Source: Nanobdellati archaeon
Lineage (GTDB): Archaea; B1Sed10-29; JAGVWA01
Assembly: GCA_018304505.1 (NCBI GenBank)
Contig: JAGVWA010000002.1
Location: forward strand, 16,567 to 80,566
DNA length: 64,000 bases
Direction: 5' to 3'
Shown piece after piece: positions 1 through 55,368 of the stretch (position 1 is its first letter; the number at the start of each line of letters is the position of its first letter). The notes beneath the pieces were generated by a model, which searched no databases, was not told the DNA's origin, and saw only the letters and a program-made list of their open reading frames with translations. Made by a program: the position numbers and the translations under genes.

Positions 1-3000
1 CACTGCACGCAGGAGCAGCTCGCGCGATCAGCAGCGCTAGGGCGTGATAGCAACCTTGTAAGTGAGTGTAAGTATAGCACTTACGGAAATCGATATCAAC
101 CAGGCTCACCAAGTGCTGACAGGGTGACTTGTGTTGCTGCAGGCTCAGATGATGAGTGGACCACGTTTTACGGAGCAGGCAAAGAATTTGTTCCGGGGCA
201 TGGTTTGCTTGACGTAAGCGGAGAAATTAAAAAACCAGCATACGAGGCTAATGACTTCACCAAATTCGAGACAGGCGCGGACCCAAAAGTTTATGGCGAG
301 GGCCGGGGGGCGGTGCTAAATGTCGGAGAGCGGTTTACAAGTGATATAAGCCCATTGCCAGCTGTGCCGAAAATCGATATTAAGAACCTGCAGCTGCTGA
401 TGCCGTACTATGCTAACAGGAGTTCTTTTGATGCCAATATTCTAGAAACACTAGATAAGAACCACCTGACTTACATTAGGCGAACGCAGTTCGTTGAGCC
501 ATTTATTGTCTTGAGAATGAAGAGCATTTTGGAAGAAATGTGGGGCGTGGCTGATTACTACGCAGGTGCAGTACAGCGCCCTGCAGATGCAGACAACTCG
601 AGCCAGTTCAACCGTGTAGTTTCGCTGGACATTTGTAACCCTCAACAAAGGCGGGCTGGCGATGCTTGTGAGCCCTTTGAGTATTACCTTGGCGATGGGG
701 CCTCGTCTTACGATTTGCTGCTGCCGGCCATATACCCAGAAATCATCCCTCCAGTTAATGATGGAGAATCGACAAGAACAATTGTGCACTTTGTGGCAAA
801 CTCAACACCACAGCTGCTTGAGTTAATCCAAAGATTCAACGAGAGCGTCCACGGCATCAGAGGGGCATTGTTTATCCAGACAGGCCAGTTCAATTTGCAG
901 GTGTTGACGCCCGGTGAGGACATCATCAAGGTCAACATGACGGGCATCGATTTAACTAGCAGCACTGTGTTGCAGCGCTTTGCCCAGACACAGCGCGGGG
1001 GCGAAACAGCAAGCCAGCTCGAGATAGAGTTCAGGCCAGGCAGCGTTGCTGACTCGCTGTTCATTGTTTCTGATTGCGCTTTCAAAGAAACATGTGGCGG
1101 CAATAATAACTTGAACCTAGACCTTGAAGCGCTAGTAATCGACAGGCTTAACAACATAACCTTTGGCACAGATAAGCAAGTTGTTTCAGCCGTACCGAAG
1201 GTCAACATGCTGCTGGAAATCCCGCTAGAGCAAGACAAGCCGGAAGAAGCGCTGTTCAAAAACAAGTACGTCGTGCTGGCAGAATCAGTAACAGAGGCTG
1301 AAAACCTCATCAAGAGGTTCATGGGAATCCAATTTAATGATGAGGGGAAGTATGTCTTTGCGCCAATCAAAACCGAAGCCCAGACAATACGATCCATGTC
1401 GGTACAGGTGAATGTCTCGAGGGGCCTGATAGTGAAGGACGTTCCAGAACTCACCTTGTCGGAGTTAGTCAAGTTCATTTTCGACGAGGACGACGATTCT
1501 GACACAAAGAAAGAATCAACGTTTATTCTTAGGTCGTATACGAGAGATGATGTTCGCATAGGGCAGGGTGTATCTGGTGAATGGCAGGGCGCAATTTGGG
1601 GCATTCCCGAAAACGGCGTGTACTCGCGCTTCGTCAACATCACCGCAACAGATTGCATTATTGGAAACCCAATAAACTCTGTTTCGCCTGATTTCCAGGA
1701 CGTGTTTGATTATAATGTGCCTGCTTCAGACCTGGGGAAGATAAACTTCGCATCTGGTGGTGACTCAAATGTGTATGGAAGGAACCCGGCGACTTATACT
1801 GGGCTGGCGTTGCTTACAATTTCACGCAGTACCACAAGAGCGGCTGGGCAGACCTACGAAGTCACTATTGACCCTGTAGAAAGGGAGAAACTGCAACGGT
1901 ATACCATCAGTGAAAGTACAAATTACACTATAAATAGTGTAACCGGGTCTGATGGGTTATTGTGGCAATTCTTCAATAGTACGGGATTAATTGACTCAAG
2001 TGTCATGGATTTGTCATCTTTGAACCCCGACAGCTTCTGCCTGTCGCAGTACCAGAGGGACGTTAGCGTTGCATCTGCAAATAGGATCGCGGTTGGTGCA
2101 CAGGTTGAAACCACAAAAGGTCTACCTGTTGATTCAGCCGATGGCACGATTCTAATAACAGACACTACCCCTTCTGGCACTGGGAAATCATGTGGATTCA
2201 CTGCTTCAAATTATTGTACGTTTGCCCAAGACACCGTAACGAGTTGGGAGGTTACCGGGGATTTCTTTGATAAGTGTGCTACTTTAGGTGTGGGAATAGC
2301 TAATAAAGGGGGGACGGTAACGTTCATTGCAGCGACGACTGCGACTCTTGGTATCTATCCTTTAATATGTGGGGGTGGGGCACTTCTCTCCGAAGGTACA
2401 ATAGAAGCCAAACAATGGGAGGAGGGCACGGCACGAGTAGTGACTGCCGAGTATTGCAGAGTTAATCCAGGGAATGGGGTATTCTACACTCCAACTCAGG
2501 AAAATGAATGCCTTATTCCATATGGGCCTAGTTGCGGCAGTGAACCCGCTAGCGATAACTCGTGCCCCACAGTACCCCCGAGATCCCCAGGAGCCTACTG
2601 CAAGCAAGGATTTACAAAATCTTCTAATGGAAGAGTGTGTTGCCCAGTTGATAAGCCAGCGGCTAGTGATGGTTTTTGCTGCCCAGCAGACAGAACTTAT
2701 AACCCAGAGCAAAACAGGTGCGCATGCACAAATGGTTTCGAGACCGCGAACGGAAATTGCGTTGGCTCGTTGAGTGAGTTAGGGGAACAAGAAAAGCAGC
2801 CGTACTACTATACGGAGTACATGAAGGACGGAAGCACTGCACTCGCAACGGGAATCTTCAAGGGAACGGCACCATTACAACAGCAAGTGACCGCAGTTGC
2901 CGAAACCACGGAAACAGATGTAACAGCTGAAACACCTGCTGGAACCACTAACGGAGTCGTGCTACCCCCCTCCCCCCAAGCGACAAAGAGCTTGATATAT

Positions 3001-3501
3001 GTGAAATCTGATGGAAGTGCTTCCCAACAATATAACGTAGACACTTATGTTAAGCCAACCCTTGGGCACTTGGTGGAGACTCTTGGTTACGGCACAAGAA
3101 ATGTCGACAGTGACTCGTATGTGACAGACAGAATTGGGGAAATATCAGGTTCAAGCGATTGGTATAACTGGGCCCTTACAAAATCGCGTACTAGTGCATT
3201 CAGGCGTATAGAGCCAGATGATGTTAATCTTTTCATGTTCCTAGGCTCGCGTTTTGAGGATGGGTGGGTTACAAACAAGCTTGAGCCATTGAAAATTAGG
3301 GACTTTTTCAGTAGGCAAAATGCTGGTGATTATTACATAGAAGTGATTCCCGAGACGGTTATTGCGGCTACAGGTGAAATCGAGAGGCACCCACTTGTTA
3401 TCATTATTAATTCCGAACGTATGAATTCAAGTGATGCAAACTTATTCTATGCCGCTGCTCGGAATGATATTCCCCTCAGAATTTCTTTTTGGACTAAGTA
3501 A
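1..3501 (+). CDS. large Cys-rich, probably extracellular protein (5'-partial; frame open to window start)
   Basis: Frame 1 has no stop from position 1 to the TAA at 3499-3501, so the gene begins outside the window (>1160 aa). Many N-x-S/T sequons. Disulfide-rich segment near the C-terminus (CPTVPPRSPGAYCKQG..CCPVDK..CCPADRTYNPEQNRCACTNGFETANGNC). No recognisable enzymatic motif. Internal minus-strand ORFs are antisense artefacts. Confidence 0.55.
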   Translation, partial: HCTQEQLARSAALGRDSNLVSECKYSTYGNRYQPGSPSADRVTCVAAGSDDEWTTFYGAGKEFVPGHGLLDVSGEIKKPAYEANDFTKFETGADPKVYGEGRGAVLNVGERFTSDISPLPAVPKIDIKNLQLLMPYYANRSSFDANILETLDKNHLTYIRRTQFVEPFIVLRMKSILEEMWGVADYYAGAVQRPADADNSSQFNRVVSLDICNPQQRRAGDACEPFEYYLGDGASSYDLLLPAIYPEIIPPVNDGESTRTIVHFVANSTPQLLELIQRFNESVHGIRGALFIQTGQFNLQVLTPGEDIIKVNMTGIDLTSSTVLQRFAQTQRGGETASQLEIEFRPGSVADSLFIVSDCAFKETCGGNNNLNLDLEALVIDRLNNITFGTDKQVVSAVPKVNMLLEIPLEQDKPEEALFKNKYVVLAESVTEAENLIKRFMGIQFNDEGKYVFAPIKTEAQTIRSMSVQVNVSRGLIVKDVPELTLSELVKFIFDEDDDSDTKKESTFILRSYTRDDVRIGQGVSGEWQGAIWGIPENGVYSRFVNITATDCIIGNPINSVSPDFQDVFDYNVPASDLGKINFASGGDSNVYGRNPATYTGLALLTISRSTTRAAGQTYEVTIDPVEREKLQRYTISESTNYTINSVTGSDGLLWQFFNSTGLIDSSVMDLSSLNPDSFCLSQYQRDVSVASANRIAVGAQVETTKGLPVDSADGTILITDTTPSGTGKSCGFTASNYCTFAQDTVTSWEVTGDFFDKCATLGVGIANKGGTVTFIAATTATLGIYPLICGGGALLSEGTIEAKQWEEGTARVVTAEYCRVNPGNGVFYTPTQENECLIPYGPSCGSEPASDNSCPTVPPRSPGAYCKQGFTKSSNGRVCCPVDKPAASDGFCCPADRTYNPEQNRCACTNGFETANGNCVGSLSELGEQEKQPYYYTEYMKDGSTALATGIFKGTAPLQQQVTAVAETTETDVTAETPAGTTNGVVLPPSPQATKSLIYVKSDGSASQQYNVDTYVKPTLGHLVETLGYGTRNVDSDSYVTDRIGEISGSSDWYNWALTKSRTSAFRRIEPDDVNLFMFLGSRFEDGWVTNKLEPLKIRDFFSRQNAGDYYIEVIPETVIAATGEIERHPLVIIINSERMNSSDANLFYAAARNDIPLRISFWTK

Positions 3502-3502
3502 T

Positions 3503-3555
3503 GCTGCACTGTAAACGTTTATAAACCCGCGCTGAGTGTTTTTGCGCGATGATGA
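3503..3555. repeat. direct repeat copy 1 (53 bp) containing the TATA-like palindrome AAACGTTTATAAAC
   Basis: gctgcactgtaaacgtttataaacccgcgctgagtgtttttgcgcgatgatga matches 4946-4998 at 50/53 positions, same orientation. It sits immediately after the stop of the giant ORF and 3' of the ATPase gene. Confidence 0.8.
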
Positions 3556-3587: not shown

Positions 3588-4838
3588 TTACTTCAATCCG
3601 TGTAGCATGAACTTCCACGCTGGAATAAGATGGATTTTTCCGTGTTCTGTTTTTATTTCATTTTCAGTGTCCTTTGTTATTATGATGCCTTTCTTGGTTT
3701 TGAATTTTTTCATAAATTCTTTTGTTCCTTTTAGGTCATCTGATACTATATTGTGCTGATATTTTACTTCTACGGGTGTCTTGTTAATGACCGCGTCTAC
3801 GTCATAGCTGTTTTTCCAGAACATGTTTGTTCCCAAGGCATTGATGACGGCCGTCTCTACCATTCTTCCGAAAAAGGAATCGTCTATAATTGGCTTGTAT
3901 GCGCTTATTATGCCCGTGTCGGTTAGGTATGCTCTCTTGGTTTTTCTTAGTGTGGACACGCCCCCTTTTCTGTAGTTTCCAAGTAATTTTACGACAAACC
4001 CCTCCTCTAGGATCATGACATATTCACTTACTGTTTTTCTATTCAAATCAAATTGCTGTGCAATTGATTGGTAACTTACGTCCATGCCGGGGTTTATCGC
4101 GATTGCTTCCATGATTTTTTTAAGTTTGTCAAGGTCGCGTATATGAAATAGTTGTAAAAAATCTTTGTAGATTATTTTGTCAATCACAATTGAGCGAATG
4201 TATTCTTTTGTTTGCCGCGCGTCTTCATTTATAACTTCTGGAAAACCACCACGTAGGATATATTCAACGAGTTCCTGCTTAATCTTTGCTTGCGGCAAAT
4301 TAATGTTTTTATTGCGCAGTTCGAGAAATTCCTTGAATGACAGGCTTGGCAGATAATGCTCATAAATGCGGCCAGCCAATGTTTCTTTAGTTTTTTGCGC
4401 TATAAATAGGCCTTCTGATCCACTGAGTACGAACTTCATTTTTGGATAAAGGTCATAGTATTTTTTAAGCTGGTTTTGCCAATTTTCTAGTTTTTGAATT
4501 TCATCAAGGAAAAGGTACGTTTTATCATGCCTGAAGTCCACGCCTTGCAGTTCTTTGTAACTAGTTAATATGTCATTTAGGTCTTTTACTGTTTCATCAA
4601 AGGAGAAGTACAGCACTTGCTTAGCGTCAACCCCGGTTGTGAGCAAGTGATTAATGGTTTGTCTCATCATCACTGTTTTTCCTACTCGTCGTAAGCCAAT
4701 AATTGATATTATCTGTCTTTTGCCAAGCTGGGATAACACTTCCTGCAACAAGTGCCGTTTATATGTTTCAAGCAATTCAGGAGGTACTCTGCGTGTGAAC
4801 CACCATTCATTAAATTCCTCAAGAACCTCTTTTCTCAT
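3588..4838 (-). CDS. AAA+ ATPase of the archaeal DUF4143/AAA_14-type family
   Basis: 416 aa. Walker A GLRRVGKT near the N-terminus. Overall sequence and length are typical of the widespread archaeal 'ATPase (AAA+ superfamily)' proteins with a C-terminal DUF4143-like region. The single gene is bracketed by the 53-bp direct repeats. Confidence 0.8.
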   Translation of the reverse strand: MRKEVLEEFNEWWFTRRVPPELLETYKRHLLQEVLSQLGKRQIISIIGLRRVGKTVMMRQTINHLLTTGVDAKQVLYFSFDETVKDLNDILTSYKELQGVDFRHDKTYLFLDEIQKLENWQNQLKKYYDLYPKMKFVLSGSEGLFIAQKTKETLAGRIYEHYLPSLSFKEFLELRNKNINLPQAKIKQELVEYILRGGFPEVINEDARQTKEYIRSIVIDKIIYKDFLQLFHIRDLDKLKKIMEAIAINPGMDVSYQSIAQQFDLNRKTVSEYVMILEEGFVVKLLGNYRKGGVSTLRKTKRAYLTDTGIISAYKPIIDDSFFGRMVETAVINALGTNMFWKNSYDVDAVINKTPVEVKYQHNIVSDDLKGTKEFMKKFKTKKGIIITKDTENEIKTEHGKIHLIPAWKFMLHGLK

Positions 4839-4945: not shown

Positions 4946-4998
4946 GCTGCACTGTAAACGTTTATAAACCCGCGTTGAGTGTTTTTGCGTGATGACGA
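4946..4998. repeat. direct repeat copy 2 (53 bp); carries the promoter-like TATA palindrome and the first codons of the downstream gene
   Basis: gctgcactgtaaacgtttataaacccgcgttgagtgtttttgcgtgatgacga. TTTATAAA lies about 30 bp upstream of the GTG/ATG at 4989/4992, the classical archaeal TATA position. Copy 1 reproduces this sequence through the first 3 codons. Confidence 0.8.
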
Positions 4999-5432
4999 AC
5001 TGGGTGCTGCAGCTGAACTTTGGCAACAACACGAATCCGTTACTGGGCCTGTTCAAGTCGCTGTTCCTGATTTTCGACCAGATCATTGGCAGCATTGACA
5101 GGATTCTCGTCAACATCATTCCGCAGTACAACATCGTGAAGCTGGGCTTCAGGGTCCTGATTTTGCTGTACATCATCTCATTTGTCAGGGAGAAATTCGG
5201 CGGCGGAGCCCTAGGCACTATTGCGGCGCTGGTGGCTGCATACGTTTTTATATTCCAGCTCCCATTTTTGCAATTTGCGGTGCTGGCTTATATTATACTG
5301 ACCATGGGCATTTCCAATATCCTGCTTGACGTGGCCCTGGCCAACCCGTTCAAGATGATTGGCAAGAAGGGCAAGCCGGAAGCACCCCATGGCGGAGCGC
5401 AGCACCCGGATGGCGGGGGAGACGTGTTCTAG
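4992..5432 (+). CDS. small polytopic membrane protein (hypothetical), tail KKGKPEAPHGG
   Basis: ORF track 4989 (GTG); first ATG at 4992. About 4 hydrophobic helices, then a Lys/Pro/Gly-rich tail resembling the tails of the 6569-7930 array. Confidence 0.5.
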   Translation: MTNWVLQLNFGNNTNPLLGLFKSLFLIFDQIIGSIDRILVNIIPQYNIVKLGFRVLILLYIISFVREKFGGGALGTIAALVAAYVFIFQLPFLQFAVLAYIILTMGISNILLDVALANPFKMIGKKGKPEAPHGGAQHPDGGGDVF

Positions 5433-5433
5433 C

Positions 5434-5769
5434 ATGGCATCACGGGGTTTTGCAATAGGCACGTGGTACTTCATACTCTTCCTGGTAATCATGGCGTTCT
5501 TCCTTGTGGGGCCAATAATCTTGGCAGAAGCCTTCCCTGTACTGAAGATAATGCTGCTCGCGTTCTTTTGCTACGAGATTTACAAGTTTGTTGAAGCGCG
5601 CGTGGGCGGCGGCGTGCTGACGTATGTGCTCTCAGGCATACTGATTTATGTCTTCGTCATTGTGCTGTGGCCGCTCCTTGTGGCGTCGTACTTCTTCACG
5701 GTCATTGTAGGCCTGGGCCTGTTCGGGCCGATACTGTTCCAGCTGCAGCACGCGGTCGAGGGCAAGTAG
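5434..5769 (+). CDS. small polytopic membrane protein (hypothetical)
   Basis: ATG 2 nt after the previous stop (MASRGFAIGTWYFILFLVIMAFF...). 3-4 TM helices with a GGG motif. The longer track ORF 5359-5769 overlaps the upstream gene and is less likely. Confidence 0.5.
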   Translation: MASRGFAIGTWYFILFLVIMAFFLVGPIILAEAFPVLKIMLLAFFCYEIYKFVEARVGGGVLTYVLSGILIYVFVIVLWPLLVASYFFTVIVGLGLFGPILFQLQHAVEGK

Positions 5770-6307
5770 CTGAAGGGCTGGGCGGCAGTCGGTTTTAGGA
5801 AAGTTTTAAATTGGACTGTTCTATTATGAAAATCCACATCGTGAGTTTATATACTTTGGGATTTAATAAAATATAAACGTAAATTTCAAAGTTAATTTAT
5901 TTGGTTCTTCTGCGCCGCATGCTTGGGGTATTTTGAGTTTGAAATACTCCCGGTCGTGGAAGCCGTATGCTCTTCTCCTACAATATGGCAGAAGGGACCC
6001 CATTTTTATCACCTTATCCTAAACTAGCAGAAGAGCTGTATTTTATTAGGGCCTAGGGTCATTCTCTGTTAGCCGCCACCTAAGAATTTTATATAGTTTC
6101 TAATAAACCAGCCTAGAAATGCGAATGTGTTTTTTGATCCGCGCGCCCAGGATGGGATGGAGTTATATACTTTTTGTCATATATGCTAATGGGTATATAA
6201 TTTTCCTGGGCGTGCCCTTTTACCAGATAACGTTAAAATACTTTGGGGGTTTAGTACTATAGTATTATAGTATATTTAGTGTTAGGGTATTATACAACGG
6301 TGAAAAA

Positions 6308-6544
6308 ATGGGAAACGTGTTCGCGGACGTGCAGCTTGCTATTACATTGATACTGTTCATAATGCTCTTCCAGTGGTCTATTGAATTCACAGCCTCGATT
6401 TTCCTGGGCGCAGTGCTGGCCCTTGTTGTGGCATACCTCACCTTCTTCAGCCACTTCGAGATCCTGCTCCTGATCCTTGTGCTGTTCTTCGGCGCGCCGT
6501 TTTTCAAGGGCCTTCTCGAGGGCATTAAGGAAGGCGTAAAATGA
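6308..6544 (+). CDS. small 2-TM membrane protein (hypothetical)
   Basis: 78 aa, two hydrophobic helices. First gene of a tightly packed same-strand array that follows a 530-bp AT-rich noncoding region. Confidence 0.45.
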   Translation: MGNVFADVQLAITLILFIMLFQWSIEFTASIFLGAVLALVVAYLTFFSHFEILLLILVLFFGAPFFKGLLEGIKEGVK

Positions 6545-6568
6545 CGAGGTTTTTCTGGGGGGCTTAGC

Positions 6569-6871
6569 ATGGATTCGCTGTCGATAGTCATCGTGCTCCT
6601 CGTCACGTTCCTGGCATACCAGCAGGGCATACCGTGGCTTTTCTGGGGCTCAGTGCTGCTGTTTGTAGTCACTGTCAGGCAGCCCAGCGTGATCATTGTG
6701 TTCGGGTTGGGCCTGCTGGCGCTGCAATTCCTCAGGCTGCAGGACTTCTGGTTTATTATACTCGCCATCATCGTTGCCTTTGTGTTGATGACACAGAAAG
6801 AGCAACCCAAGCCCGCAGGCGGCGAAGAGCTCTACTCCCCTGAGCTGATGGAGCTCCTTGGTGGTAAGTAA
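6569..6871 (+). CDS. small 3-TM membrane protein, paralog family 'KPxx..YPEK-tail'
   Basis: 100 aa. Tail QKEQPKPAGGEELYSPELMEL resembles the tails of the next three genes. Its stop overlaps the next start (TAATG). Confidence 0.5.
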   Translation: MDSLSIVIVLLVTFLAYQQGIPWLFWGSVLLFVVTVRQPSVIIVFGLGLLALQFLRLQDFWFIILAIIVAFVLMTQKEQPKPAGGEELYSPELMELLGGK

Positions 6872-7221
6872 TGAAGCTTGACAATTCAGTGCTTGTGGCA
6901 GTCATCATCGTGCTGGCCTTCGGATTCCTTAACAAGCTCATAGTGCCGGCGATATTAGTAAGCATAGCAGTGGTTTATTTTATGGCAAAGCCAGAACCGG
7001 CGCCAGCCCTAATTACAGACACAGGGCAGCCCAAGGTAGAACCAATCAGGGTCCAGCGGGTTTACACAGGCCCGAAATCAATATACCCTGAGAAGATGGA
7101 GATCCACCTTAAGGGCGAAAAGGCCAAGCAGATCCACCTAAAGGAAGGCGCCAAGGGCACGCTCAAGGAACTTGGCAGGTGGGCGAAGTACTTCCTGACT
7201 GGAAAAATCGATGAAAAGTGA
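6871..7221 (+). CDS. small 2-TM membrane protein, paralog family 'KPxx..YPEK-tail'
   Basis: 116 aa. Two TM helices, then AKPEPAPA..SIYPEKMEIHLKGEKAKQIHLKEG. Confidence 0.55.
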   Translation: MKLDNSVLVAVIIVLAFGFLNKLIVPAILVSIAVVYFMAKPEPAPALITDTGQPKVEPIRVQRVYTGPKSIYPEKMEIHLKGEKAKQIHLKEGAKGTLKELGRWAKYFLTGKIDEK

Positions 7222-7238
7222 TCGCGGAGTGATATGCA

Positions 7239-7589
7239 ATGTCGAATAACAACACGTATGCGCTGCTCGCCATAATAATTTTGGCTTCACTGTACCTGAA
7301 ATTGCAGTGGCTCACCATAGGTTTGGTGCTGTTAACCGTGCTGTTGTATGTGTCAGAATCAAAGCCAGCAAAGGCCGAGGGGGCAAAGGCTGCACCAGGT
7401 TCGCAAGGGCCGACGCTGCGGCCTGTGATTTATGAGGACGTTGGGCCTGTGCCATCACTGTATCCTGAAAAGCAGGAAATCGTTATAGTTACAGAGCCCC
7501 CAAAAGTAGCAGCCACAATGGTGCTGGAGTCGCTGGCCAACATAACCTCGTCAGTGTTCTGGCTGTTTAAAGGACTAATGAGGAAATGA
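7239..7589 (+). CDS. small 2-TM membrane protein, paralog family 'KPxx..YPEK-tail'
   Basis: 116 aa. Two TM helices, then SKPAKAEGAKAAPG..SLYPEKQEIVIV. Overlaps the next gene by 4 nt (ATGA). Confidence 0.55.
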   Translation: MSNNNTYALLAIIILASLYLKLQWLTIGLVLLTVLLYVSESKPAKAEGAKAAPGSQGPTLRPVIYEDVGPVPSLYPEKQEIVIVTEPPKVAATMVLESLANITSSVFWLFKGLMRK

Positions 7590-7930
7590 TAAACATGAAC
7601 ACGACGCAACTGATATTAATCCTCATTGCTGCGCTGCTCGTTTACATTGGATACGGCATTCCTGCGCTTGTGCTGCTCGGGATCGCGTTCATGGTGAAGG
7701 AAAAACCAGCAGCCTCAAAGGCGGGCGCTGCAGGCGCGGGCGGCATCGCGCCCATCCAGATACCGTATCAGGCACCGTACACCATTCCAGAGAAAATGTC
7801 CATGAAGATGGGAGAGGCCAAGGCGGGAAAACGCAAGTGGGAAGGCCCGATGGAAGACGTCGCAGGTGGTCTCGGTGGTATAATCGGCAAGCTCCTTGGC
7901 AGGGCAGTAAGTGGGGGCAAGAAAAAATGA
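7586..7930 (+). CDS. small 2-TM membrane protein, paralog family 'KPxx..YPEK-tail'
   Basis: 114 aa. Two TM helices, then KEKPAASKAGAAGAGG..YTIPEKMSMKMGEAKAGKRK and a Gly-rich basic end. Confidence 0.55.
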   Translation: MINMNTTQLILILIAALLVYIGYGIPALVLLGIAFMVKEKPAASKAGAAGAGGIAPIQIPYQAPYTIPEKMSMKMGEAKAGKRKWEGPMEDVAGGLGGIIGKLLGRAVSGGKKK

Positions 7931-7958
7931 GGCCGGAGACAATTTGGTAGTGATCAAT

Positions 7959-8693
7959 ATGATCTGGTGGCTCTTTATTTTTCTTGTCTTGCTCGGGGTT
8001 TACATGAACAACATCGTTGTGCTTGCAGCAGCGCTCATCATCCCGCTTCACGAATTCTTCCTGAAACAGCAGGCGCAAGCCATGATGCCTACTAAACCAA
8101 TGCCCAGGGAGCATGCTGCAGTTCCCGTGCATGAAGACGCGCACATACGGATTCAGGATGAAATAATTCAGGGCCCTGCGCCGCCGCATCCGCTTGAGTC
8201 ATTTGACGTCTGGCGAAGGCCGTTCCCAGTGAATTTAGTGACACAGCTCGGGCTTACAGCTGCGCCTGTTGTACATCCAGAAACAGGAAAGCAGGTTTAC
8301 AGTGCTGAGGGCAAGCCCCTGATTGCACCAGCGATAGAGGCGAAAGAGCAGACTATCCCTCAGATATTGGCAGAAAAGCCCGAATACAGCAAAGACCCGC
8401 TGGTTAGAAGCAAGCTATTTATAGACTTCCCGCTTTACAACATCAGTGGCATCATCAAGTACGGTGGCGAGCTGGCGAGGGCCGTAGCTGAGCAGCCCGA
8501 GGTGTTTGAAGTAAAAGGGATGATGGAGACGCAGCTGGGGCAGCAGATAAAAACAATGCGCGCAGTTCAGCAAAGGTATTTTGAAGAAGTGGCTGCGTTC
8601 AACAAGATGCCGCGTGGGCCGGAAAAGCAGAAGGAGTATGAAAGGCTCAAGGGCCTTGACACAGCGTTGAAAAGAACAGGATGGTTAAAATGA
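7959..8693 (+). CDS. N-terminally membrane-anchored protein (hypothetical)
   Basis: The track start 7911 is GTG and overlaps the previous gene. The first ATG at 7959 gives MIWWLFIFLVLLGVYMNNIVVLAAALII (signal anchor) followed by a ~200-aa soluble domain. Its end overlaps the next gene's start. Confidence 0.5.
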   Translation: MIWWLFIFLVLLGVYMNNIVVLAAALIIPLHEFFLKQQAQAMMPTKPMPREHAAVPVHEDAHIRIQDEIIQGPAPPHPLESFDVWRRPFPVNLVTQLGLTAAPVVHPETGKQVYSAEGKPLIAPAIEAKEQTIPQILAEKPEYSKDPLVRSKLFIDFPLYNISGIIKYGGELARAVAEQPEVFEVKGMMETQLGQQIKTMRAVQQRYFEEVAAFNKMPRGPEKQKEYERLKGLDTALKRTGWLK

Positions 8694-9529
8694 TGACGAA
8701 GAAAATGTTCATGGCGTTGGGGATGCTGATTTTCATGTTTGCCGCAGTTCCGCTAGCAGTCGCGCAGGAAACCCCCGAGTTAGAAATAGGGACTCCGTAT
8801 GAGGAAATTCCGCAGGAGGAAATTGACGCTGCAATACAGGCTGCGCACGCAGCGGAAATCGCAACCACTAATCTCTTGAGCACCGGCATTTCGATTGACG
8901 AGGACCTTGGGTGTTATGATCGGCCTGACGGCGGCAAGGAATGCCTTAACCCGATAGTGTTTTTTGAAGAGCCAGTGACGTTCACAGACGACGTTTTCTG
9001 CTATTCAAGCAACCCCGAGGCGAGATGCACCAGTGACTGCAATGACATCCTGGACCTTGGCTGCACCACATCGATAAGAACCACGCAGGCTTCTGAAAAA
9101 GAGCTGTGCGTTGACGTGATTTCAAAAACAGGTGACGTTCGGGTTGAAGTTGAGTGCGAAAACATCACCATAAACGTGCAGGAATTCGACACGGGCCTTT
9201 TCCCTGGCGTCATAACGTCTTACGCGAACTGTCAGAAAAGAGTTACCGATGCCGATGCAGATGTGGCTGGCGGCCCGCAGGTGTATGAAGTGCAGTGCCC
9301 ATTCAAGGGCAAAACCTTCCTTGTAAACGGAGGTATAATGCACTACGGGGCCTTCATGATCAAGGACATTCTTTCAGAGACATCGCCGCAACAAATCGAG
9401 GTAAAGACCGTGTTTGCGGGCCTGCTGCTATTGATTTTCGTGTGGGCGCTCATTCCTACTCTGCTACAGAAGAAAAAACCGACTGTGGCTGTGGTACCAA
9501 AACCCCCGAAACCAAGCAAGCGCAGATAA
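8681..9529 (+). CDS. secreted Cys-rich protein with a C-terminal TM anchor and basic tail
   Basis: Sec-type signal MTKKMFMALGMLIFMFAAVPLAVAQE, about 12 Cys in the mature part. C-terminal VFAGLLLLIFVWALIPTLLQKKKP..KPPKPSKRR resembles an archaeal C-terminal membrane-anchor/sorting signal. Confidence 0.6.
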   Translation: MVKMMTKKMFMALGMLIFMFAAVPLAVAQETPELEIGTPYEEIPQEEIDAAIQAAHAAEIATTNLLSTGISIDEDLGCYDRPDGGKECLNPIVFFEEPVTFTDDVFCYSSNPEARCTSDCNDILDLGCTTSIRTTQASEKELCVDVISKTGDVRVEVECENITINVQEFDTGLFPGVITSYANCQKRVTDADADVAGGPQVYEVQCPFKGKTFLVNGGIMHYGAFMIKDILSETSPQQIEVKTVFAGLLLLIFVWALIPTLLQKKKPTVAVVPKPPKPSKRR

Positions 9530-9572: not shown

Positions 9573-9653
9573 AAGGCGCATGAGCATCTTGCGCCGTCAG
9601 AGGCGTATGAGCATCTTGCGCCGTCAAAGGCGCATGAGCATCTTCTTGTTCAG
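9573..9653. repeat. 3 x 27-bp tandem repeat; each unit contains the hairpin GGCGCA-N9-TGCGCC
   Basis: Units 9573-9599, 9600-9626, 9627-9653. Unit 3 encodes the last 9 codons of the minus-strand gene 9624-9923. Units 1 and 2 are in-frame copies each ending in TGA (reading ..KKMLMRL* RRKMLIRL* RRKMLMRL*). Confidence 0.85.
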
Positions 9654-9923
9654 GTCCAAGAGTTTCTCATTCAATTCTTTAATGGAAACAAGCAACGGCT
9701 TCAAGCCTTCAAGCATTTCCTTGATTGTGTGCACCTCATCGGCCAATTCGTGCGATTCCTTTTCAGACAAGCCGGAAACGCTGCCATGCAGCGCCTCGAT
9801 TTTCTTCTGGTGCTCTTCAAGGTCACTTTTCACAGTGTCCAAGACCCGCGAAACTTCCTCCGGGGACTCTGGCTCTGGCGCCGGTTCAGGCGCTGCGCCC
9901 GTTGTTTCTTCTTCATCCTGCAT
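9624..9923 (-). CDS. small acidic coiled-coil protein (hypothetical)
   Basis: 99 aa. Pro/Glu-rich N-terminus then heptad-like LEEHQKKIEALHG..LKPLLVSIKELNEKLLDLNKKMLMRL. The 3' end is part of the 27-bp tandem repeat. The overlapping plus-strand ORF 9295-9927 is judged antisense noise. Confidence 0.5.
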   Translation of the reverse strand: MQDEEETTGAAPEPAPEPESPEEVSRVLDTVKSDLEEHQKKIEALHGSVSGLSEKESHELADEVHTIKEMLEGLKPLLVSIKELNEKLLDLNKKMLMRL

Positions 9924-9991: not shown

Positions 9992-11533
9992 ATGGCGGAA
10001 CTGGACTTAAAACACGGGCCTTGGACAGCGATCTTCAGCGGCGAATGGAAGGGGCACGAAGTCAGTTTGTACCAAAACCCGGACATGCTGACGATGTTGA
10101 TGTTGGTAGACACATCGCCTGAAGGGCAAGCCAAGGGCGTCCTGATTGTCCTGAATAAGTACTTCACCTTCAAGGGGTCTCCAGAAGAGCTGGCAACTGC
10201 ATTACGGGGGTATTCGCTCGTGTTCGAAAAAAACACGCCGACGTTCAGGGCAAAGTACTTCGCCCTCTCGAGTTCACCGAGGTACGCGAAGCCTGACCAG
10301 GAATCGATACAGGAAACCATAGAAGAGAACTTTGCAGAGTTAAGGCAGAGGAGTGAACAGGCCATCGAATCAAGCACGGCTTATCAGGTTGACTTGACTG
10401 ACATTAGGAACTCCGGGAAGGATTTGCAGGACAAGCTCTTCAGTGAACCAAGCATACTCACGGGTTTAATGGTTACTGCGCCCGGTGTTGGGGCTGTCAC
10501 AGAAACAGAGGGCGGCGAAGCCATTGCAGGTGCCCCAGCGCGAGCCAAAGCAACCAATGAAGCAACAGCCCTGCTGGGAAAAAAACTCACAGGCGAAAAC
10601 GCAACAGAGGTACTGCAGAGCTTCCTCACAACGATTATTTCGGGCAGCGACAAGGAAGTGAAAAAAGCAGCACACGTGGTCCTTGAGAACTGTGTGTTGA
10701 ACAACGTCATCACGATTGTGTATGATGAGGACAATTACTTTGAGAGAATGAAAACGCCGAACCAGAACTTTGACCGGGAGCATTATCCTGAACTGGAACC
10801 GATAGGCATGCCTGTCAAAAACGTCACACTTGAGAAGATAGGCATCAACCTCGACCTCATGGACTCGAAATCATTTAGGGAGATTCTCAGGATAGCTGGT
10901 GATTCAATAACAGGGAATGACACTTATGCGCTGATAGGCGAGGTCTTTTATAAATATCCTCAGGGAATCGACAAGCTGGACGACGTCATTGGTTTGCTGC
11001 TGCAGGAAGAGGATCCGCAGAAGATGTTTCATTCGCGGCGTGCAGCCCGCTTCTTGAAAATCCTTGAGCAGAAACACCCGGGGGTTTTCAGAAAGGGCAC
11101 TGACATGACGCAGTTTGTGTCTGCTTATGCGGCTGCGTTGAGCCAGGCCATCAGGCTGCCATTGCAGAACGTGACGCCGGAAATCAAAAAGGCAGTCATG
11201 TTGTCCATGTCGAGCGCATTCCTGAACTATTACAAGGAACGCAACCCATCAAGTGCGCTCAAGGCGCTACACTTAATGACAAATGCCAACAACGTGATGC
11301 AGGCTGATTCTGAAAAAGTGCTTGATGCAAAGCTCATAGAAGTTTACAAGCAGTCGCAGCAGATCGGCATCGGTTACCTCTTCGGGCTTGACGTTGACGC
11401 CGCGCCCCACGCCGACGTTCAGTCAAACCAAAGTTTAAGCATTTCGTTTGTTACGGAAACCGAAGTCGCCGTGAAGGAAAAAACCGGCAAGCCCTACCGT
11501 GCAGTCCTGAGGCCGCCGCTGTCTGCATATTAA
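9992..11533 (+). CDS. hypothetical soluble protein (513 aa)
   Basis: Long ORF with no TM helices and no motif I recognise. Confidence 0.55.
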   Translation: MAELDLKHGPWTAIFSGEWKGHEVSLYQNPDMLTMLMLVDTSPEGQAKGVLIVLNKYFTFKGSPEELATALRGYSLVFEKNTPTFRAKYFALSSSPRYAKPDQESIQETIEENFAELRQRSEQAIESSTAYQVDLTDIRNSGKDLQDKLFSEPSILTGLMVTAPGVGAVTETEGGEAIAGAPARAKATNEATALLGKKLTGENATEVLQSFLTTIISGSDKEVKKAAHVVLENCVLNNVITIVYDEDNYFERMKTPNQNFDREHYPELEPIGMPVKNVTLEKIGINLDLMDSKSFREILRIAGDSITGNDTYALIGEVFYKYPQGIDKLDDVIGLLLQEEDPQKMFHSRRAARFLKILEQKHPGVFRKGTDMTQFVSAYAAALSQAIRLPLQNVTPEIKKAVMLSMSSAFLNYYKERNPSSALKALHLMTNANNVMQADSEKVLDAKLIEVYKQSQQIGIGYLFGLDVDAAPHADVQSNQSLSISFVTETEVAVKEKTGKPYRAVLRPPLSAY

Positions 11534-11952: not shown

Positions 11953-12324
11953 ATGTGGGGACAGCAAATAGTTGACGCAGCAACAGCCAACAGGCGAAGC
12001 ATTAAATGGTGGGGGCCGCGCGAATCATTTCCGTTCAGGGACGGCGAACCAAAATACCCCGAAGGCCGAATGGTTGGCTCAGTCGGCATCCCGCGCGAAG
12101 AACCCGGGCTGTACGTGAACGTTGTAAATGGTGATGCTGGAATATTTTACATGTATTTAACAGATGATGAAAACGGAAGACATGCAAGCCAGATGGCGAC
12201 AACCGCAGACCGTGCGTTCAGGCAGGACTTGCTGCGCCAAGGCCAGGACAGCAAAAGCACAAGGGAATTTTTGAGGGAAATGCAATCGCACTTTGAGCGG
12301 CAGTCCCCGGAAGAAGATCAGTAG
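11953..12324 (+). CDS. hypothetical protein (123 aa)
   Basis: ORF preceded by about 250 bp of noncoding sequence. No recognisable motif. Confidence 0.4.
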   Translation: MWGQQIVDAATANRRSIKWWGPRESFPFRDGEPKYPEGRMVGSVGIPREEPGLYVNVVNGDAGIFYMYLTDDENGRHASQMATTADRAFRQDLLRQGQDSKSTREFLREMQSHFERQSPEEDQ

Positions 12325-12803
12325 TCCTCTTCGTACTCGTCACGCGGGCGCCTTCTTCTGCGCACGGGTGCAGCGCGTTTTCTTTCCTCTAATTCAAGAG
12401 CTCGGTCGATCTTTTCGTCAATCAAGTCGTTGACCTGGTCTACAGTGACGTAGGCCACGGGGTTCATCTGGTTAACAATGTACTTTGTCTCATCAACAAC
12501 CCCGCGCAGCTTTGACAGCTCCTTCTGATTCTGATCGACAAGCCTCTGCAGTTCAGCCGCGTTTCCAGCACCCGCCGCACTGGCTGTCGCGGCCACTTGT
12601 TTCGTTGTAGCTGCCTCAGCTATCGCTTTTTCAAGGTCTTTGAGCATCTTATTATGGCTCACGAGGGTTTTGCCGATGATCTGCTCGTTCTTCTCGATGA
12701 TCTTCATTCGCTGTGCAATGACCTGAATTTTAGAATTAAGGGAACTCACTTCTCCTAATAAGGCTCCAACAGATGCGGGTTGCGCCATGTAATCATCGTG
12801 CAA
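12318..12803 (-). CDS. coiled-coil protein with an Arg-rich acidic C-terminus (hypothetical)
   Basis: 161 aa. Long heptad region and a C-terminal PVRRRRRPRDEYEEDY. Divergent from PolB. Confidence 0.5.
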   Translation of the reverse strand: MHDDYMAQPASVGALLGEVSSLNSKIQVIAQRMKIIEKNEQIIGKTLVSHNKMLKDLEKAIAEAATTKQVAATASAAGAGNAAELQRLVDQNQKELSKLRGVVDETKYIVNQMNPVAYVTVDQVNDLIDEKIDRALELEERKRAAPVRRRRRPRDEYEEDY

Positions 12804-15572: not shown

Positions 15573-16016
15573 TTAGTAGTCAATGACGTCGAGTTCTCGT
15601 AGTTTGCACTGGAAGTACTTGCTCGTGCACTTTATGAAGAAACCAGTGATTTTCTTGTCGTCTTTAATCTTTGGTGTAACATAGACGCCGGATTTCCTCA
15701 TCTCTACTGGCGTGGTTTCGCCGCTCGTGGTTCCGTCTTCGAAGCGTGTTATTGCCACAAACCACCCGCTGCCGCGGAGTTTGAGCTGGCGCACCCTGTG
15801 CCTTGGCTCGTCGAGTTTTATTTCTAGAATTTGTTTTCTTTTGGTTTGTATCTTTGAGTATGTGCTGATTTTGCCGTCTGAGATTGAAGGCGAGTACACG
15901 CTGTCGCCGGCAGTGGCTGTGTAGCCTACATCAACTGCTAAGGCTGCGGGCACCATTAGTGTAACGGCCAGCAAAAATGCTAGTGCCCTAGTTGAGTTTA
16001 AGTTGAAATTTGTCAT
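15573..16016 (-). CDS. secreted protein, paralog family member (subtype A)
   Basis: Sec signal ..ALAVDVG. C-terminal module LKLRGSGWFVAITRFEDGTTSGETTPVEM..GFFIKCTSKYFQCKLRELDVIDY*. About 55% identical over the C-terminal 90 aa to 22469-22975. Confidence 0.7.
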   Translation of the reverse strand: MTNFNLNSTRALAFLLAVTLMVPAALAVDVGYTATAGDSVYSPSISDGKISTYSKIQTKRKQILEIKLDEPRHRVRQLKLRGSGWFVAITRFEDGTTSGETTPVEMRKSGVYVTPKIKDDKKITGFFIKCTSKYFQCKLRELDVIDY

Positions 16017-16185: not shown

Positions 16186-16803
16186 CTATGGGTATATCTC
16201 GAGCTCATATATAAAGCAGGGAAAGTACTTATTAGTGCACTTTATTTCAAATCCATAGTACTGGTATGGCGATAACCCGCTGCTTCCTGTCGCGTCGCGA
16301 ATTGGTGGCACAATGTCTACCCCCCTCTTCTGGTTGGCCTTTACGGGTGTACTTTCGTAGCTTGTGGTAGAAATGCCTGCTCCCTTCGGTCTTTTAGCTG
16401 GATCACTTTTTTCATATTTTGATATGATAACAAACCAGCCGCTGCCTTTTATCCTGACCTTGCTTACTGTCCTGACGGGATTAGTGGCGGGATTACTGAA
16501 GGCGATTGAGAGTGACGAACGTCTCTTCACCGAGAGCAGATACTTGGTGTTCATGTTTCCATCACTGACTGTACTCCGTTTGGCATCTCCCAGACCCCTA
16601 AAAACGTAACTTATGGAGCCAGCGGCAAAGCCCGGTGTGATGGGCTCTTCTTGGGCAAAAATCTGATTGTAAACACTGTCTATGGTTTCATCGGCGAAGC
16701 CTGTGGCAAATGCAGCGACAACGATGATGGCGAGGGCTGCTGTTATGAGTAGGGGTTTGTTTTGAAGGTATTTGGTTATTGTTGCACCCTTTTGTTTTCT
16801 CAT
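16186..16803 (-). CDS. secreted/membrane-anchored protein, paralog family member (subtype B)
   Basis: Signal anchor ..AAFATGFADE. Module VRIKGSGWFVIISKYEK...GFEIKCTNKYFPCFIYELEIYP*. Pairs with 21744-22400 (same GFADE signal end and EIYP* terminus). Confidence 0.7.
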   Translation of the reverse strand: MRKQKGATITKYLQNKPLLITAALAIIVVAAFATGFADETIDSVYNQIFAQEEPITPGFAAGSISYVFRGLGDAKRSTVSDGNMNTKYLLSVKRRSSLSIAFSNPATNPVRTVSKVRIKGSGWFVIISKYEKSDPAKRPKGAGISTTSYESTPVKANQKRGVDIVPPIRDATGSSGLSPYQYYGFEIKCTNKYFPCFIYELEIYP

Positions 16804-16883: not shown

Positions 16884-17804
16884 ATGGTCGCGAGTATGTT
16901 TATAAAGAGGATGTGCATGGAAGACGCAGAGAAGAAACTCGTCTTTAATCATAGCGAGACAAGGGGCCAGGGCTCAATGGAGTACCTGTTCATCATCGCA
17001 GGCGTTTTAGCAGTAGCTGCAATCGCTGTCTTGTTTTTGACAAGCGCGGGATCAGGGGCTGCACAGCAGCAACTAATCACGAATTGCGTCACTTCGGCCA
17101 CAACATGCCAGGCTGCACAGCTCGCGAGTCCGGGAACAACGTGCCTTTCATCATGCGCAAGGTCATGCAGTGACCCCAGAACGGGGATTGATCTGATGTC
17201 CAAGGATTCGGTTTTTGACATCCAAAGAAACAGGCCTGTTGCGTGCCCCCCGGGTTCGGCGTGCAGCCTTTGCGGGCTTGGAAAATCGGATTTAGTTGTA
17301 ACAGCACTAGCAGGGAACAAGCAGGTCGCGGTGCTGTCACCCCTGGTGCCGGAAAGCATCGGCCAAAACCAGCGTACTGCGGTCTCGTGCAACACTAGAA
17401 TAAGGCAGGTCATGTATCCCCTGCAAGGCGACAGGTATTTGCTTTACTACACCGTGGAAATACAAGGAAGAACACCCTTGGTTGATTTTTATGTCATTGA
17501 AAACAAGCCCGCGTCGTTCAATGGCCAATGTGTAGGAATAAACCCGACACAGGCCTACGGCAGCGTCCTGAATTTTATGAGCAACTATGAACAGCAAGAG
17601 GCCTGCGTAACAGAATTAGCCGGGCAAAACCCCCAAAATCCCTTTGCCCCGATACTGGTTTCAACAGCGCAGGCAAACAACCCCGCGGGCGCTATGGTAA
17701 ATCTTGATGAAGCAAACCTCGAATTCACGGTGCTGTACTTCACCCCGGGTTTTGAGCAGGACCTGTCAGATTCAACGCTCGGGTTAGTCATTGGCGGCCG
17801 CTGA
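16884..17804 (+). CDS. type IV pilin-like protein with an archaeal class III signal peptide, Cys-rich
   Basis: ..HSETRG|QGSMEYLFIIAGVLAVAAIAVLFL matches the archaeal prepilin (DUF361-like) motif (Q+1, S+3, E+5, hydrophobic stretch). Shares CxxxxRxCSDPRxGxD and near-identical N-terminal DNA with the pilins at 55369 and 55992. The leader is longer if 16884 is the true start; alternative ATGs at 16911/16917. Confidence 0.75.
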   Translation: MVASMFIKRMCMEDAEKKLVFNHSETRGQGSMEYLFIIAGVLAVAAIAVLFLTSAGSGAAQQQLITNCVTSATTCQAAQLASPGTTCLSSCARSCSDPRTGIDLMSKDSVFDIQRNRPVACPPGSACSLCGLGKSDLVVTALAGNKQVAVLSPLVPESIGQNQRTAVSCNTRIRQVMYPLQGDRYLLYYTVEIQGRTPLVDFYVIENKPASFNGQCVGINPTQAYGSVLNFMSNYEQQEACVTELAGQNPQNPFAPILVSTAQANNPAGAMVNLDEANLEFTVLYFTPGFEQDLSDSTLGLVIGGR

Positions 17805-17964: not shown

Positions 17965-18771
17965 ATGGACTTAAGTTCGACTAACACAAAGATCATCATA
18001 GGGGTTTTAGTAGTGGCTGTTTTAGGAGGATACTATTTATTCTTTGATACAAGTACAACACCCGGGACTATTGAGGAGGCCACCATAGTTGGGCCACTGT
18101 CGGAGGATACAATCGGGCCCGGCTTTGCACCCACAACATCTTTTGTTAATTTAACATCTGGCCAAACCGGAACAGCGCCAGGTGGTGTCTCAGTAACCTT
18201 CAGGGCGGGTTCAAAAGTAGGGACGACACTCTACGCAACTTTCGATGTTGGAAGGGTATTGAGTGACGGAACAGCCTACAATTTCACAACTTATGCGATG
18301 TCGCTAAACCAATCGCATGTGAATGAAACCGCAGGGGTGACAGTATCTGTTGTCTCACTCGAAGAGATAAGCCAAGGTGTGTTTAATGTAATGGCAAGAA
18401 TAAGTGTAAGCGAACTTAATGTAAGTGTAAGTGAAGTAAAATTGAAGTACTACAATACATTATCAGGAAACATTAACGATGGTTCTACAGCAACATACAC
18501 GATAATGAGGAGCAGAACAGGTGTTGGCATCAAGCTGTTTACCAATTCCACTGTCAGTAAAATGACAATCAAGGGAAATGGCTACTTCAACGTGCACTCT
18601 AAGTTCACTGATGGGACATGGAGCAAAGCCTACGGCGCGCGCACAGACCCGAAAACATACGAAATCACGTTTACACCACCGTCAAAACCAGGGCAACTCA
18701 TCAGCAACTTTGAGCTATGGTGCAGCTGGAGCAGCGCTTGCAGGATAAATGAATTGGAGATCTACAAGTAA
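17965..18771 (+). CDS. secreted protein, paralog family member (subtype C)
   Basis: N-terminal signal anchor. Module MTIKGNGYFNVHSKFTDGTWS...ELWCSWSSACRINELEIYK*. Confidence 0.65.
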   Translation: MDLSSTNTKIIIGVLVVAVLGGYYLFFDTSTTPGTIEEATIVGPLSEDTIGPGFAPTTSFVNLTSGQTGTAPGGVSVTFRAGSKVGTTLYATFDVGRVLSDGTAYNFTTYAMSLNQSHVNETAGVTVSVVSLEEISQGVFNVMARISVSELNVSVSEVKLKYYNTLSGNINDGSTATYTIMRSRTGVGIKLFTNSTVSKMTIKGNGYFNVHSKFTDGTWSKAYGARTDPKTYEITFTPPSKPGQLISNFELWCSWSSACRINELEIYK

Positions 18772-18809: not shown

Positions 18810-19328
18810 ATGCATAAACTGAATATAAAATCGAACACCAAAATCATTATCGGGGCGATAATCGCTCTAGCACTAGTTGCTGGGGTCTTTGTTTATGTTG
18901 ATTCAGGCTCAACGTCAACTGGTTTGACACCCGCGGAACTCGCGGACATAGAGGGGAAGTCTGCGCAGGAAGAATTGCGACCTGGCTATTATCTTAATCC
19001 GGGGCAGGTGCCGTACTATGGAGCACCAACAGCGATCTCAGATCGGAACACGGGCACGATAACCATACTCCGAAGGCGAGAGGGGGTCAAGGCATTAATT
19101 CTTGGCGGGTATGGGGCTCCATCAGTTGCAAAAATAAATGGATATGGTAGATTCAATGTTCATTCACTTTTCAGTGACGGGACTGCCAGCACTGCAGTAG
19201 TAGCAAGCGGGAGCGGTGATGTCACCCTGAAGAAAAAGTCAGGAACAACCATCAAAGGCGTTGAGTTATGGTGCCCTTCGTATTTTGGCAGCCCGTGTGG
19301 GATACGTGAACTTGAACTATACCAGTAG
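18810..19328 (+). CDS. secreted protein, paralog family member (subtype C)
   Basis: N-terminal signal anchor. Module AKINGYGRFNVHSLFSDGTAS...ELWCPSYFGSPCGIRELELYQ*. Confidence 0.65.
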   Translation: MHKLNIKSNTKIIIGAIIALALVAGVFVYVDSGSTSTGLTPAELADIEGKSAQEELRPGYYLNPGQVPYYGAPTAISDRNTGTITILRRREGVKALILGGYGAPSVAKINGYGRFNVHSLFSDGTASTAVVASGSGDVTLKKKSGTTIKGVELWCPSYFGSPCGIRELELYQ

Positions 19329-54311: not shown

Positions 54312-54357
54312 CATAATGAAAAATAATGAAAACATGTAATACATCAGATAAAATGAG

Positions 54358-55290: not shown

Positions 55291-55368
55291 GGAAAAGGTT
55301 GAGGAAAGGTTTATAAACAAATGCTGATTTCATAACTCAGTTATACTAACAATATGGAGGTAAAATGA

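Follow-up and report, generated by a model that had tools for sequence, protein, structure and literature searches.

A window of 64,000 nucleotides (nt) from the genome of a Nanobdellati archaeon (assembly GCA_018304505.1, contig JAGVWA010000002.1, positions 16,567 to 80,566 of the forward strand) carries an array of eight small membrane-protein genes, here termed A1, A2, B, C, D1, D2, D3 and E, which we are confident is a real and conserved operon of new membrane-protein families. The array is followed by genes for a coiled-coil protein (CC1) and for a HerA-like protein (G) predicted to be a catalytically dead pseudo-ATPase, and a giant surface protein is encoded upstream. Tentatively, and as a reading that falls somewhat short of probable, we propose that this set of genes specifies a lineage-specific envelope complex, in which cytoplasmic tails of the small proteins would dock the putatively dead HerA-like ring and which would have a role in a surface structure. 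Coordinates given below are those of the window unless another lineage is named.

An earlier inspection made from the letters alone (the sequence-only reading) had placed nine open reading frames (ORFs) on the same strand in this region, and all of them are present on the plus strand at the claimed positions. A1 (4989 or 4992-5432, 147 amino acids, aa) and A2 (5434-5769, 111 aa; gene callers start it at an alternative ATG further 5', at position 5389) encode polytopic membrane proteins; B (6308-6544, 78 aa) encodes a protein of about three transmembrane (TM) helices having the invariant core 'YLT..H.E', and C (6569-6871, 100 aa) one of about four TM helices that ends in an acidic peptide, 'EE.YSPELM.LLGG'. 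The products of D1 (6871-7221, 116 aa), D2 (7239-7589, 116 aa), D3 (7586-7930, 114 aa) and E (7959-8693, 244 aa) are predicted to be anchored by a hydrophobic hairpin. The product of the ninth frame, F (8681-9529, 282 aa), is secreted and rich in Cys; it has a signal peptide and, at the C-terminal end, a TM helix that precedes a basic tail. F occurs in three lineages only (the window genome, L012 and L015) and counts as an accessory part of the locus.

Stops and starts overlap as had been claimed, in TAATG at 6869-6873 (C/D1) and in ATGA at 7586-7589 (D2/D3); moreover, the E and F frames overlap by 13 nt (8681-8693), and the other gaps between genes of the array measure 1-28 nt, with GGTGA- or GGAG-like motifs in several of them. 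A clear coding signal was obtained for all the small ORFs from the GC content by codon position (GC1 ~0.55, GC2 0.28-0.44, GC3 0.56-0.74; A1 having 0.53/0.31/0.74), the same signature being displayed by G and by the nearby PolB gene and being absent from a 47-aa ORF that the gene finder called in the gap between A2 and B (6119-6262). Since profile searches also found homologs with the conserved tail motif in related genomes, the ORFs are not spurious. The proposal of a single operon finds support as well, in the sense of a co-expressed operon, the tight coupling being kept in other lineages. A TATA-box-like element, TTTATAAA, can be read at 4962-4969 (plus strand), about 20 nt 5' of the A1 start, and its position suggests a leaderless or short-leader transcript start for A1. 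Identical copies of the D2 protein are present on eight contigs from several groundwater metagenomes, Rifle samples included, and its product is listed in NCBI as a hypothetical protein of a 'DPANN group archaeon'.

Four adjacent genes (6569-7930) had been taken as clear paralogs. This holds for D1, D2 and D3, which matched one another by blastp over the whole protein with values of 2e-6 to 3e-5 (nine-sequence database) and whose relationship persisted in shuffle tests restricted to the tails, after exclusion of the hydrophobic part (D1-D2, p=0.0015; D1-D3, p=0.0045), but not for C, for which the tail test gave p=0.26-0.81. When C was compared to the D family using hhalign, a probability of 67% was obtained across a single TM helix only; C is best regarded as a separate, well-conserved family whose paralogy with D has no significant support. 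Likewise, the idea of one tail motif common to A1, C and the three D proteins failed the tail shuffle tests, and the resemblance to the D tails seen in the A1 terminus '..KKGKPEAPHGG' was not significant (p 0.22-0.91). E, which aligned with the D family at 92% probability (hhalign, E 6e-7), is probably a fourth and divergent D-type paralog; A1 and A2 (blastp 1.3e-5, common motif 'FVRxRxGGG', read as 'FVRxKFGGG' in A1) are, by this comparison, a paralog pair of their own, separate from D.

Members of the D family are ~110 aa long and share one architecture: a two-helix hydrophobic hairpin, a linker rich in K, S, P and A, a Pro-flanked motif of the general form 'PI[IV]V...GP..IYPEKM', and finally a C-terminal helix in which small residues are frequent. 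In every lineage each subfamily retains its own version of the motif. That of D1 is 'V[QR]PI[IV]VKRKYxGPxSIYPEKMxI', with a basic first strand (net charge +2 or +3 in seven of eight lineages); that of D2, '[IL][YH]PV[IV]YEDxGxPPxLYPEK', has an acidic first strand ('PV[IV]YEDxGxPPxLYP'); and that of D3, 'LEPI[VI]IESTRGxPYRIPxxM', has one that is about neutral ('LEPI[VI]IESTRGxPYRIP'), the window copy of D3 being divergent at this place, where it reads 'IAPIQIPYQAPYTIPEKM'. The tails are net positive in most D orthologs. E carries the motif 'KHxxIQxxPPxE' and varies in length from 78 to 244 aa between lineages. An AlphaFold2 (AF2) model of D3 placed helices at residues 6-23, 26-36 and 84-109 and left the motif region unstructured.

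The sequence-only reading had not recognised the family, and no significant match for the small proteins was obtained in Pfam, NCBIfam, PHROGs or the PDB. A word-indexed search with a D1-D3 profile matched only proteins of the window genome itself; an exhaustive search of 1.84 billion cluster representatives with the D profile retrieved 31 further proteins, all devoid of Pfam domains, beyond the three queries, that is 34 cluster representatives of 100-125 aa, all three subfamilies being recovered by the single profile. A second D search, with 49 sequences, gave 49 clusters at 90% identity, none of them with a Pfam domain and one of them named Candidatus Micrarchaeota archaeon. Profile searches of the PDB with families A, B, C and D were empty or non-significant, the best match of the D profile being minor capsid protein P9 of PBCV-1 (E 0.11, non-significant), and nothing below E 0.02 was found in PHROGs. 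An 'HflC' (SPFH/stomatin) label carried at JGI by two D3 clusters could not be reproduced and was judged spurious; Band_7 (PF01145, ~170 aa) was absent among the 25 commonest of 40 weak Pfam families matched by the 49 D members at E<=1, and only ~75 residues follow the membrane anchor of D proteins, compared with the ~170 aa of that domain. These comparisons were done with HMMER profiles and one hhalign comparison per pair; at that sensitivity the small proteins match no known family or system, and a very remote kinship with type IV secretion systems (T4SS) or pilus accessory proteins could still emerge. As the eight membrane proteins fit into none of the families and systems compared, we rate the locus as lying outside the known kinds. 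It is not described in the passages searched of papers on Micrarchaeota S-layers and the Mia14 genome, on DPANN cryo-tomography, on archaeal 'dark matter', on uncharacterised archaeal membrane proteins or on the Ced and Ted systems.

Relatives of the locus were recovered using PolB as an anchor and then through contigs of individual homologs, and gene order was followed as far as each contig reaches (the contigs of L016 and L017 are 1.08 Mb and 692 kb long). Nine further lineages (L007, L009-L017) were found to carry these genes with their order unchanged: giant protein, A1, A2, B, C, D1, D2, D3, E, CC1 on the opposite strand, and G. Loci found via D carry G, and vice versa; scans with E on genome contigs and with G on metagenome contigs returned nothing or one locus. 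Among the small subunits B has the highest identity to the window protein (40-49%), followed by C (33-44%), A2 (28-46%) and A1 (30-38%, seven lineages), with D1-D3 at 17-41% and E at 17-35%; for comparison, G and PolB of the same lineages display 28-50% and 49-53%, respectively.

Such conservation could also be seen if the genes were real but functionally unrelated, their order being kept by the low rearrangement of small genomes, and it is in favour of this explanation that the adjacency of the locus to PolB and the M24 peptidase is conserved too, with no obvious functional link. We give it a low probability. Overlaps of 1-4 nt or gaps of less than 20 nt recur across lineages within the B-C and D1-D2-D3-E blocks, and in the lineages compared no insertion was seen inside these blocks, whereas inserted genes (toxin-antitoxin or other) are tolerated elsewhere, at the giant|A1, A2|B, C|D1 and G|CC2 junctions of various lineages. 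Furthermore, four paralogs are kept as an ordered set, with their subfamily motifs, in every lineage; ordered and retained sets of paralogs are typical of the subunits of hetero-oligomers.

Judged by its context, the operon is chromosomal and vertically inherited in a DPANN (Micrarchaeota-like) clade. The window contains housekeeping genes for PolB, M24 peptidase, Trm5, CCA-adding enzyme, NrdD, Elp3, GatDE and ThrRS. The sequence-only reading had raised the alternative of a viral or integrated-element membrane module, which we now consider highly improbable. Many small membrane proteins beside a protein of the HerA/FtsK superfamily do resemble the genomes of membrane-containing viruses, the best, non-significant PDB match of D is the PBCV-1 protein mentioned above, and selfish genes (AAA_14/DUF4143 and PIN) interrupt the region in the window genome. 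Against this stand the housekeeping context, a synteny with PolB that is kept at ~50% PolB identity, a GC content like that of the surrounding genome, and the absence from the locus of a capsid, integrase or replication module; PHROGs gave no significant match, neither G nor the D family has relatives in IMG/VR, and G has none in phage or plasmid collections. As a separate observation, the PolB ortholog of L016 (13675-17550 of that contig) is 1291 aa long and contains an intein (Intein_splicing and LAGLIDADG matches), the others having 770-789 aa.

Within the core locus, the only recognisable relative appears to be a degenerate HerA. G (9992-11533, plus strand, 513 aa, predicted cytoplasmic) is present in every lineage after CC1, which itself lies 3' of E (or F), and has ~500 aa throughout. 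DUF87 (PF01935) matched six of 11 G orthologs, at scores under the Pfam cut-off, over profile positions ~38-218 of 220 (~180 residues), the matches beginning at position ~38-42 and no match to the window copy being among those reported. When a profile of nine orthologs was compared with the PDB the five best matches were all of the HerA clade (the DptH entry 7es4, then 8wiv, 8xau, 4d2i and 7f6d). G thus resembles HerA, a member of the FtsK-HerA superfamily of hexameric NTPases, in its size of ~500 aa, in a β-rich N-terminal region (in a low-confidence AF2 model), and in a central DUF87 match followed by ~110 residues that can be aligned with HerA ATPase domains over the C-terminal half of the latter. 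It differs in the catalytic motifs: GxxxxGK[ST] (Walker A) was found in none of the nine aligned orthologs, the Walker B 'LVVLEEAH' of HerA aligns to non-acidic segments of the 'HLMTNANN' type, and the region '...GVG..L.SQRP' reads 'YGVG.C.G'. G is predicted to be catalytically dead because it has no P-loop and its Walker B position is non-acidic. Unlike HerA, moreover, G scores under the Pfam cut-off, is accompanied by no NurA, Sir2 or other known partner, and has membrane-protein genes rather than repair or defence genes as neighbours; the PADLOC models of HerA and other defence ATPases matched no G ortholog, a single weak RT_IV match (E 0.017) being returned.

CC1 (9624-9923, minus strand, 99 aa) always lies between E/F and G, and its Pfam matches, like those of a second coiled-coil protein of the region (CC2, see below), were generic coiled-coil ones only. 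The window copy is without the N-terminal helical domain of ~55 aa (pattern '..IV..M...G.S..EI...L...G...DD...VL') that is carried by all ten orthologs (163-220 aa).

Two-helix hydrophobic hairpins, and several small membrane proteins adjoining a HerA/FtsK-superfamily protein, are also what would be seen in a highly diverged T4SS, Ced- or Ted-like apparatus for DNA or protein translocation, in which the hairpins would be VirB2/VirB3-like, A1 and A2 a VirB6-like channel, and G the VirB4/HerA-class ATPase. The arrangement is indeed like that of VirB3/VirB2-VirB4 and of Ced/Ted, where two-helix small proteins stand beside a ring protein of the HerA/VirB4 class, and Ced and Ted components have, according to PMC9905601, no recognisable sequence similarity to each other. 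We nevertheless find this explanation quite unlikely, as G, with no Walker A in nine of nine aligned orthologs and a non-acidic Walker B, is predicted to be unable to power transport, and its PDB matches are HerA proper and DptH, not VirB4. None of the VirB2/TrbC, VirB3 and VirB6/CedA families was among the 25 commonest of the 40 weak Pfam families for the 49 D members (E<=1), nor did any of them match A-C at E<=0.1, and no other sequence or profile similarity to these systems was found; the locus encodes no large VirB6-like polytopic protein or CedA-like channel, no coupling protein and no relaxase. Finally, the hairpin of VirB2-type pilins exceeds the ~35 residues of the D hairpin, and VirB2 and CedA1 do not have the long tail, bearing a conserved motif, that D proteins are predicted to possess on the cytoplasmic side.

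The gene for the giant surface protein begins 5' of the window, which contains the part encoding its C-terminal 1125 aa (124-3501, plus strand); on contig k141_196450 the protein has a full length of 2611 aa. Its N-terminus, 'EDKYYDFLDSLEEKGISLYSVIDPLEMKGIPTFP', belongs to a conserved N-domain of ~45 aa that is followed by a single TM helix, and because of this order we take the protein to be anchored N-terminally, as a type II anchor with the N-domain in the cytoplasm and the bulk predicted to be extracellular. Giant orthologs of 1599-2810 aa lie directly 5' of the array in seven of the seven lineages with upstream sequence. Beside the giant gene there is a gene for a pilin-like protein of 280-400 aa with a class-III-like N-terminus ('M[KR]GFSLF[TA]PL[VI]GT'), located 5' of it in L014, L016, L017 and the window genome and just 3' of it in L013, and a short Exosortase_EpsH-like (archaeosortase-like) gene of 174-178 codons lies 5' of the pilin-like gene in L014, L017 and the window genome (both genes together at 1505-2943 in L014, at 992-2336 in L017, and at 19253-21251 of L018, the window genome, 5' of the window). 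A divergent T2SSE ATPase is also encoded just 5' of the giant gene in L014 and L017. In the window genome a gene pair for a PIN toxin and a 66-aa protein is inserted between the pilin-like and giant genes.

This neighbourhood lends some support to another explanation, that the small proteins belong to the adjacent type IV pilus-like machinery, be it as diverged pilins, as minor pilins or as accessory subunits: a class-III-type pilin-like protein is encoded just 5' of the giant gene, as is T2SSE in two lineages (L014 and L017), and PMC6393860 proposes that small proteins without recognisable relatives, encoded in type IV pilus loci of DPANN archaea, are pilins. We hold it to be very unlikely. 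No match to PF04021 (Class_IIIsignal) was found for A1, A2, B, C, D1-D3 or E at E<=0.1, whereas two other ORFs of the same window, 16884 and 55974, were matched; the N-termini (MKLDNS, MSNNNT and MINMNT in the D proteins) have neither a basic leader nor the [KR]G cleavage motif; the hydrophobic part consists, by AF2 and hydrophobicity, of two helices with a turn and not of one; and the lysine-rich segment and net positive tail predict a cytoplasmic location for the tail, not an extracellular one.

Returning to the envelope complex proposed above, we suggest that the eight small membrane proteins assemble as one hetero-oligomeric complex, since the tight and conserved start/stop coupling points to production in fixed ratios and assembly into one unit. 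The D-type tails would face the cytoplasm, as the positive-inside rule predicts for lysine-rich linkers and net positive tails. The D1-D3 motif, unstructured alone in the monomer model, may fold upon binding, with an amphipathic helix following it, and the tails may pair between subunits, a possibility suggested by the conserved basic strand of D1 and the acidic one of D2. Through the D tails, and perhaps the acidic C-terminal peptide of C, the G ring and CC1 would be held on the cytoplasmic face of the membrane; there G would serve as a scaffold ring and not as a motor, because its loss of motifs predicts that it cannot hydrolyse NTP. The whole would contribute to a cell-surface or adhesion structure by building, anchoring or organising it, a role that seems the most likely one because the locus always adjoins the giant N-anchored protein and the pilin-like and archaeosortase-like genes, and which is plausibly relevant to host contact in reduced archaea. 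Among the functions offered by the sequence-only reading, 'subunits of a membrane scaffold' remains the best description of what these proteins may do.

Several points weigh against this proposal. In small DPANN genomes gene order can persist without functional linkage, and the adjacency of the locus to PolB, broken in L013 and L009, is probably incidental. The kinship of G with HerA comes from sub-threshold values, namely DUF87 scores of 14.9-22.1 bits for a Pfam cut-off of 23.2 and E-values of 0.015-0.65 for the PDB matches, which align the next ~110 residues; an AF2 model of G built from four sequences had a pLDDT of 42 and was unusable, and that of D3 was only moderate (pLDDT 65, pTM 0.25). 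The helices of the D hairpin are short (~13-18 residues), so that a monotopic or re-entrant arrangement is possible instead, and topology was deduced solely from hydrophobicity and the positive-inside rule. In addition, the D family was not detected in cultured Micrarchaeota.

A more ambitious version of the proposal, in which the locus would encode an undescribed, Micrarchaeota-specific trans-envelope machine acting as a site of host attachment or exchange, with the giant protein as adhesin, the pilin-like protein, the eight subunits and the dead HerA as baseplate, seems to us rather unlikely.

Two known arrangements offer a partial parallel to the proposed complex. The first, as a functional analogy only, is that of PilN/PilO with PilM, where small anchored proteins present a short conserved cytoplasmic peptide; the PilN peptide docks a cytoplasmic scaffold protein with an ATPase-type fold, and here too pilin-like and T2SSE genes are near the locus. 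However, PilN and PilO cross the membrane once and have periplasmic domains, whereas the D proteins are predicted to be hairpins that expose almost nothing on the outside; there is no relationship in fold or sequence, and PilM is actin-like, G HerA-like. The second is the SlaB-type stalk, which the locus recalls in having membrane-protein genes directly 3' of a very large surface-protein gene. A-E, with essentially no extracellular domain predicted, could not form such a stalk, and unlike the SlaB systems the giant protein has a TM anchor of its own at the N-terminus and is not a Micrarchaeota S-layer protein of the PF05123 type. How the S-layer protein of Micrarchaeota is anchored is given as an open question in a preprint (bioRxiv 10.1101/2021.04.28.441871).

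The array of the window genome is further marked by two segments. An AT-rich noncoding stretch with TAGTAT repeats had been noticed between A2 and B, and was confirmed as a gap of 538 nt (5770-6307), specific to this lineage, with 37.7% GC, against 48.7% for the window; 20-nt repeats of the TAGTAT type occupy 6250-6294, three TTTATATACTTT-like boxes lie at 5846, 6088 and 6162, and the B start is preceded, at a distance of 5 nt, by a GGTGA. Compared with shuffled sequences the gap has a more stable fold (z -3.0, the value being reached by 0 of 100 shuffles), and it has no Rfam match and no further copy within the window. At this junction six other lineages have only 34-77 nt, and L013 an inserted NTP_transf_2 nucleotidyltransferase gene (8584-9384 of its contig); the possibility that the gap is a remnant of an insertion of the L013 type was examined by tblastn, which found no trace of it. 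The gap might represent a regulatory region peculiar to this lineage, encode a small RNA, or be an insertion that has decayed. Other genes inserted at junctions of the locus are that of an RHH_1 protein in L010 (7593-7769) and a ParE/RHH pair in L013 (13410-13895).

The second segment lies between the giant gene and A1, where other lineages have only 31-49 nt and the window has a gene for an AAA_14/DUF4143 ATPase (3588-4838, minus strand). A direct repeat of 50 nt with two mismatches (3503-3552 and 4946-4995) is found on either side of this gene and includes the TATA-like box together with the initial A1 codons; because the repeat brackets the ATPase gene, the ~1.44-kb segment looks like an insertion with target duplication.

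CC2 (12318-12803, minus strand) is a conserved coiled-coil protein with the motifs 'IEKNEQIIGKTL..HNK.LK' and 'KYV.D..NPVAYVT.DQV.DL.DEK', and its gene is always divergently paired with that of PolB. We left it out of the system because it stays with PolB when the locus is separated, as in L013; it may be linked to replication or the cell cycle and not to the membrane locus.

Elsewhere in the window there are two more sets of the type IV pilus type, at 32843-34381 and 51163-57194, one of which is a lone T2SSE and the other an operon of T2SSE, two T2SSF and a class III signal pilin. Next to another class III signal pilin (16884-17804) there is a local paralog family of four proteins, secreted or anchored (15573-16016 and 16186-16803, minus strand; 17965-18771 and 18810-19328, plus strand), which have in common the C-terminal module '...G.G.F.V.S.F.DGT...W/KC......C....ELE[IVL]Y'.

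On a cautious reading, the new conserved families of membrane proteins that the locus adds number at least four (A, B, C and D/E), with motifs clear enough for inclusion in family databases. DPANN archaea depend on physical contact with their host cells, and to our knowledge the molecules that build these contact sites are almost entirely unknown; a locus of ~12 genes in conserved order provides a concrete set of candidates for such host-contact structures. If its products do form one complex, this would represent a novel type of envelope assembly in archaea, and it would give a new example of a pumping-ATPase ring reused as a passive scaffold.

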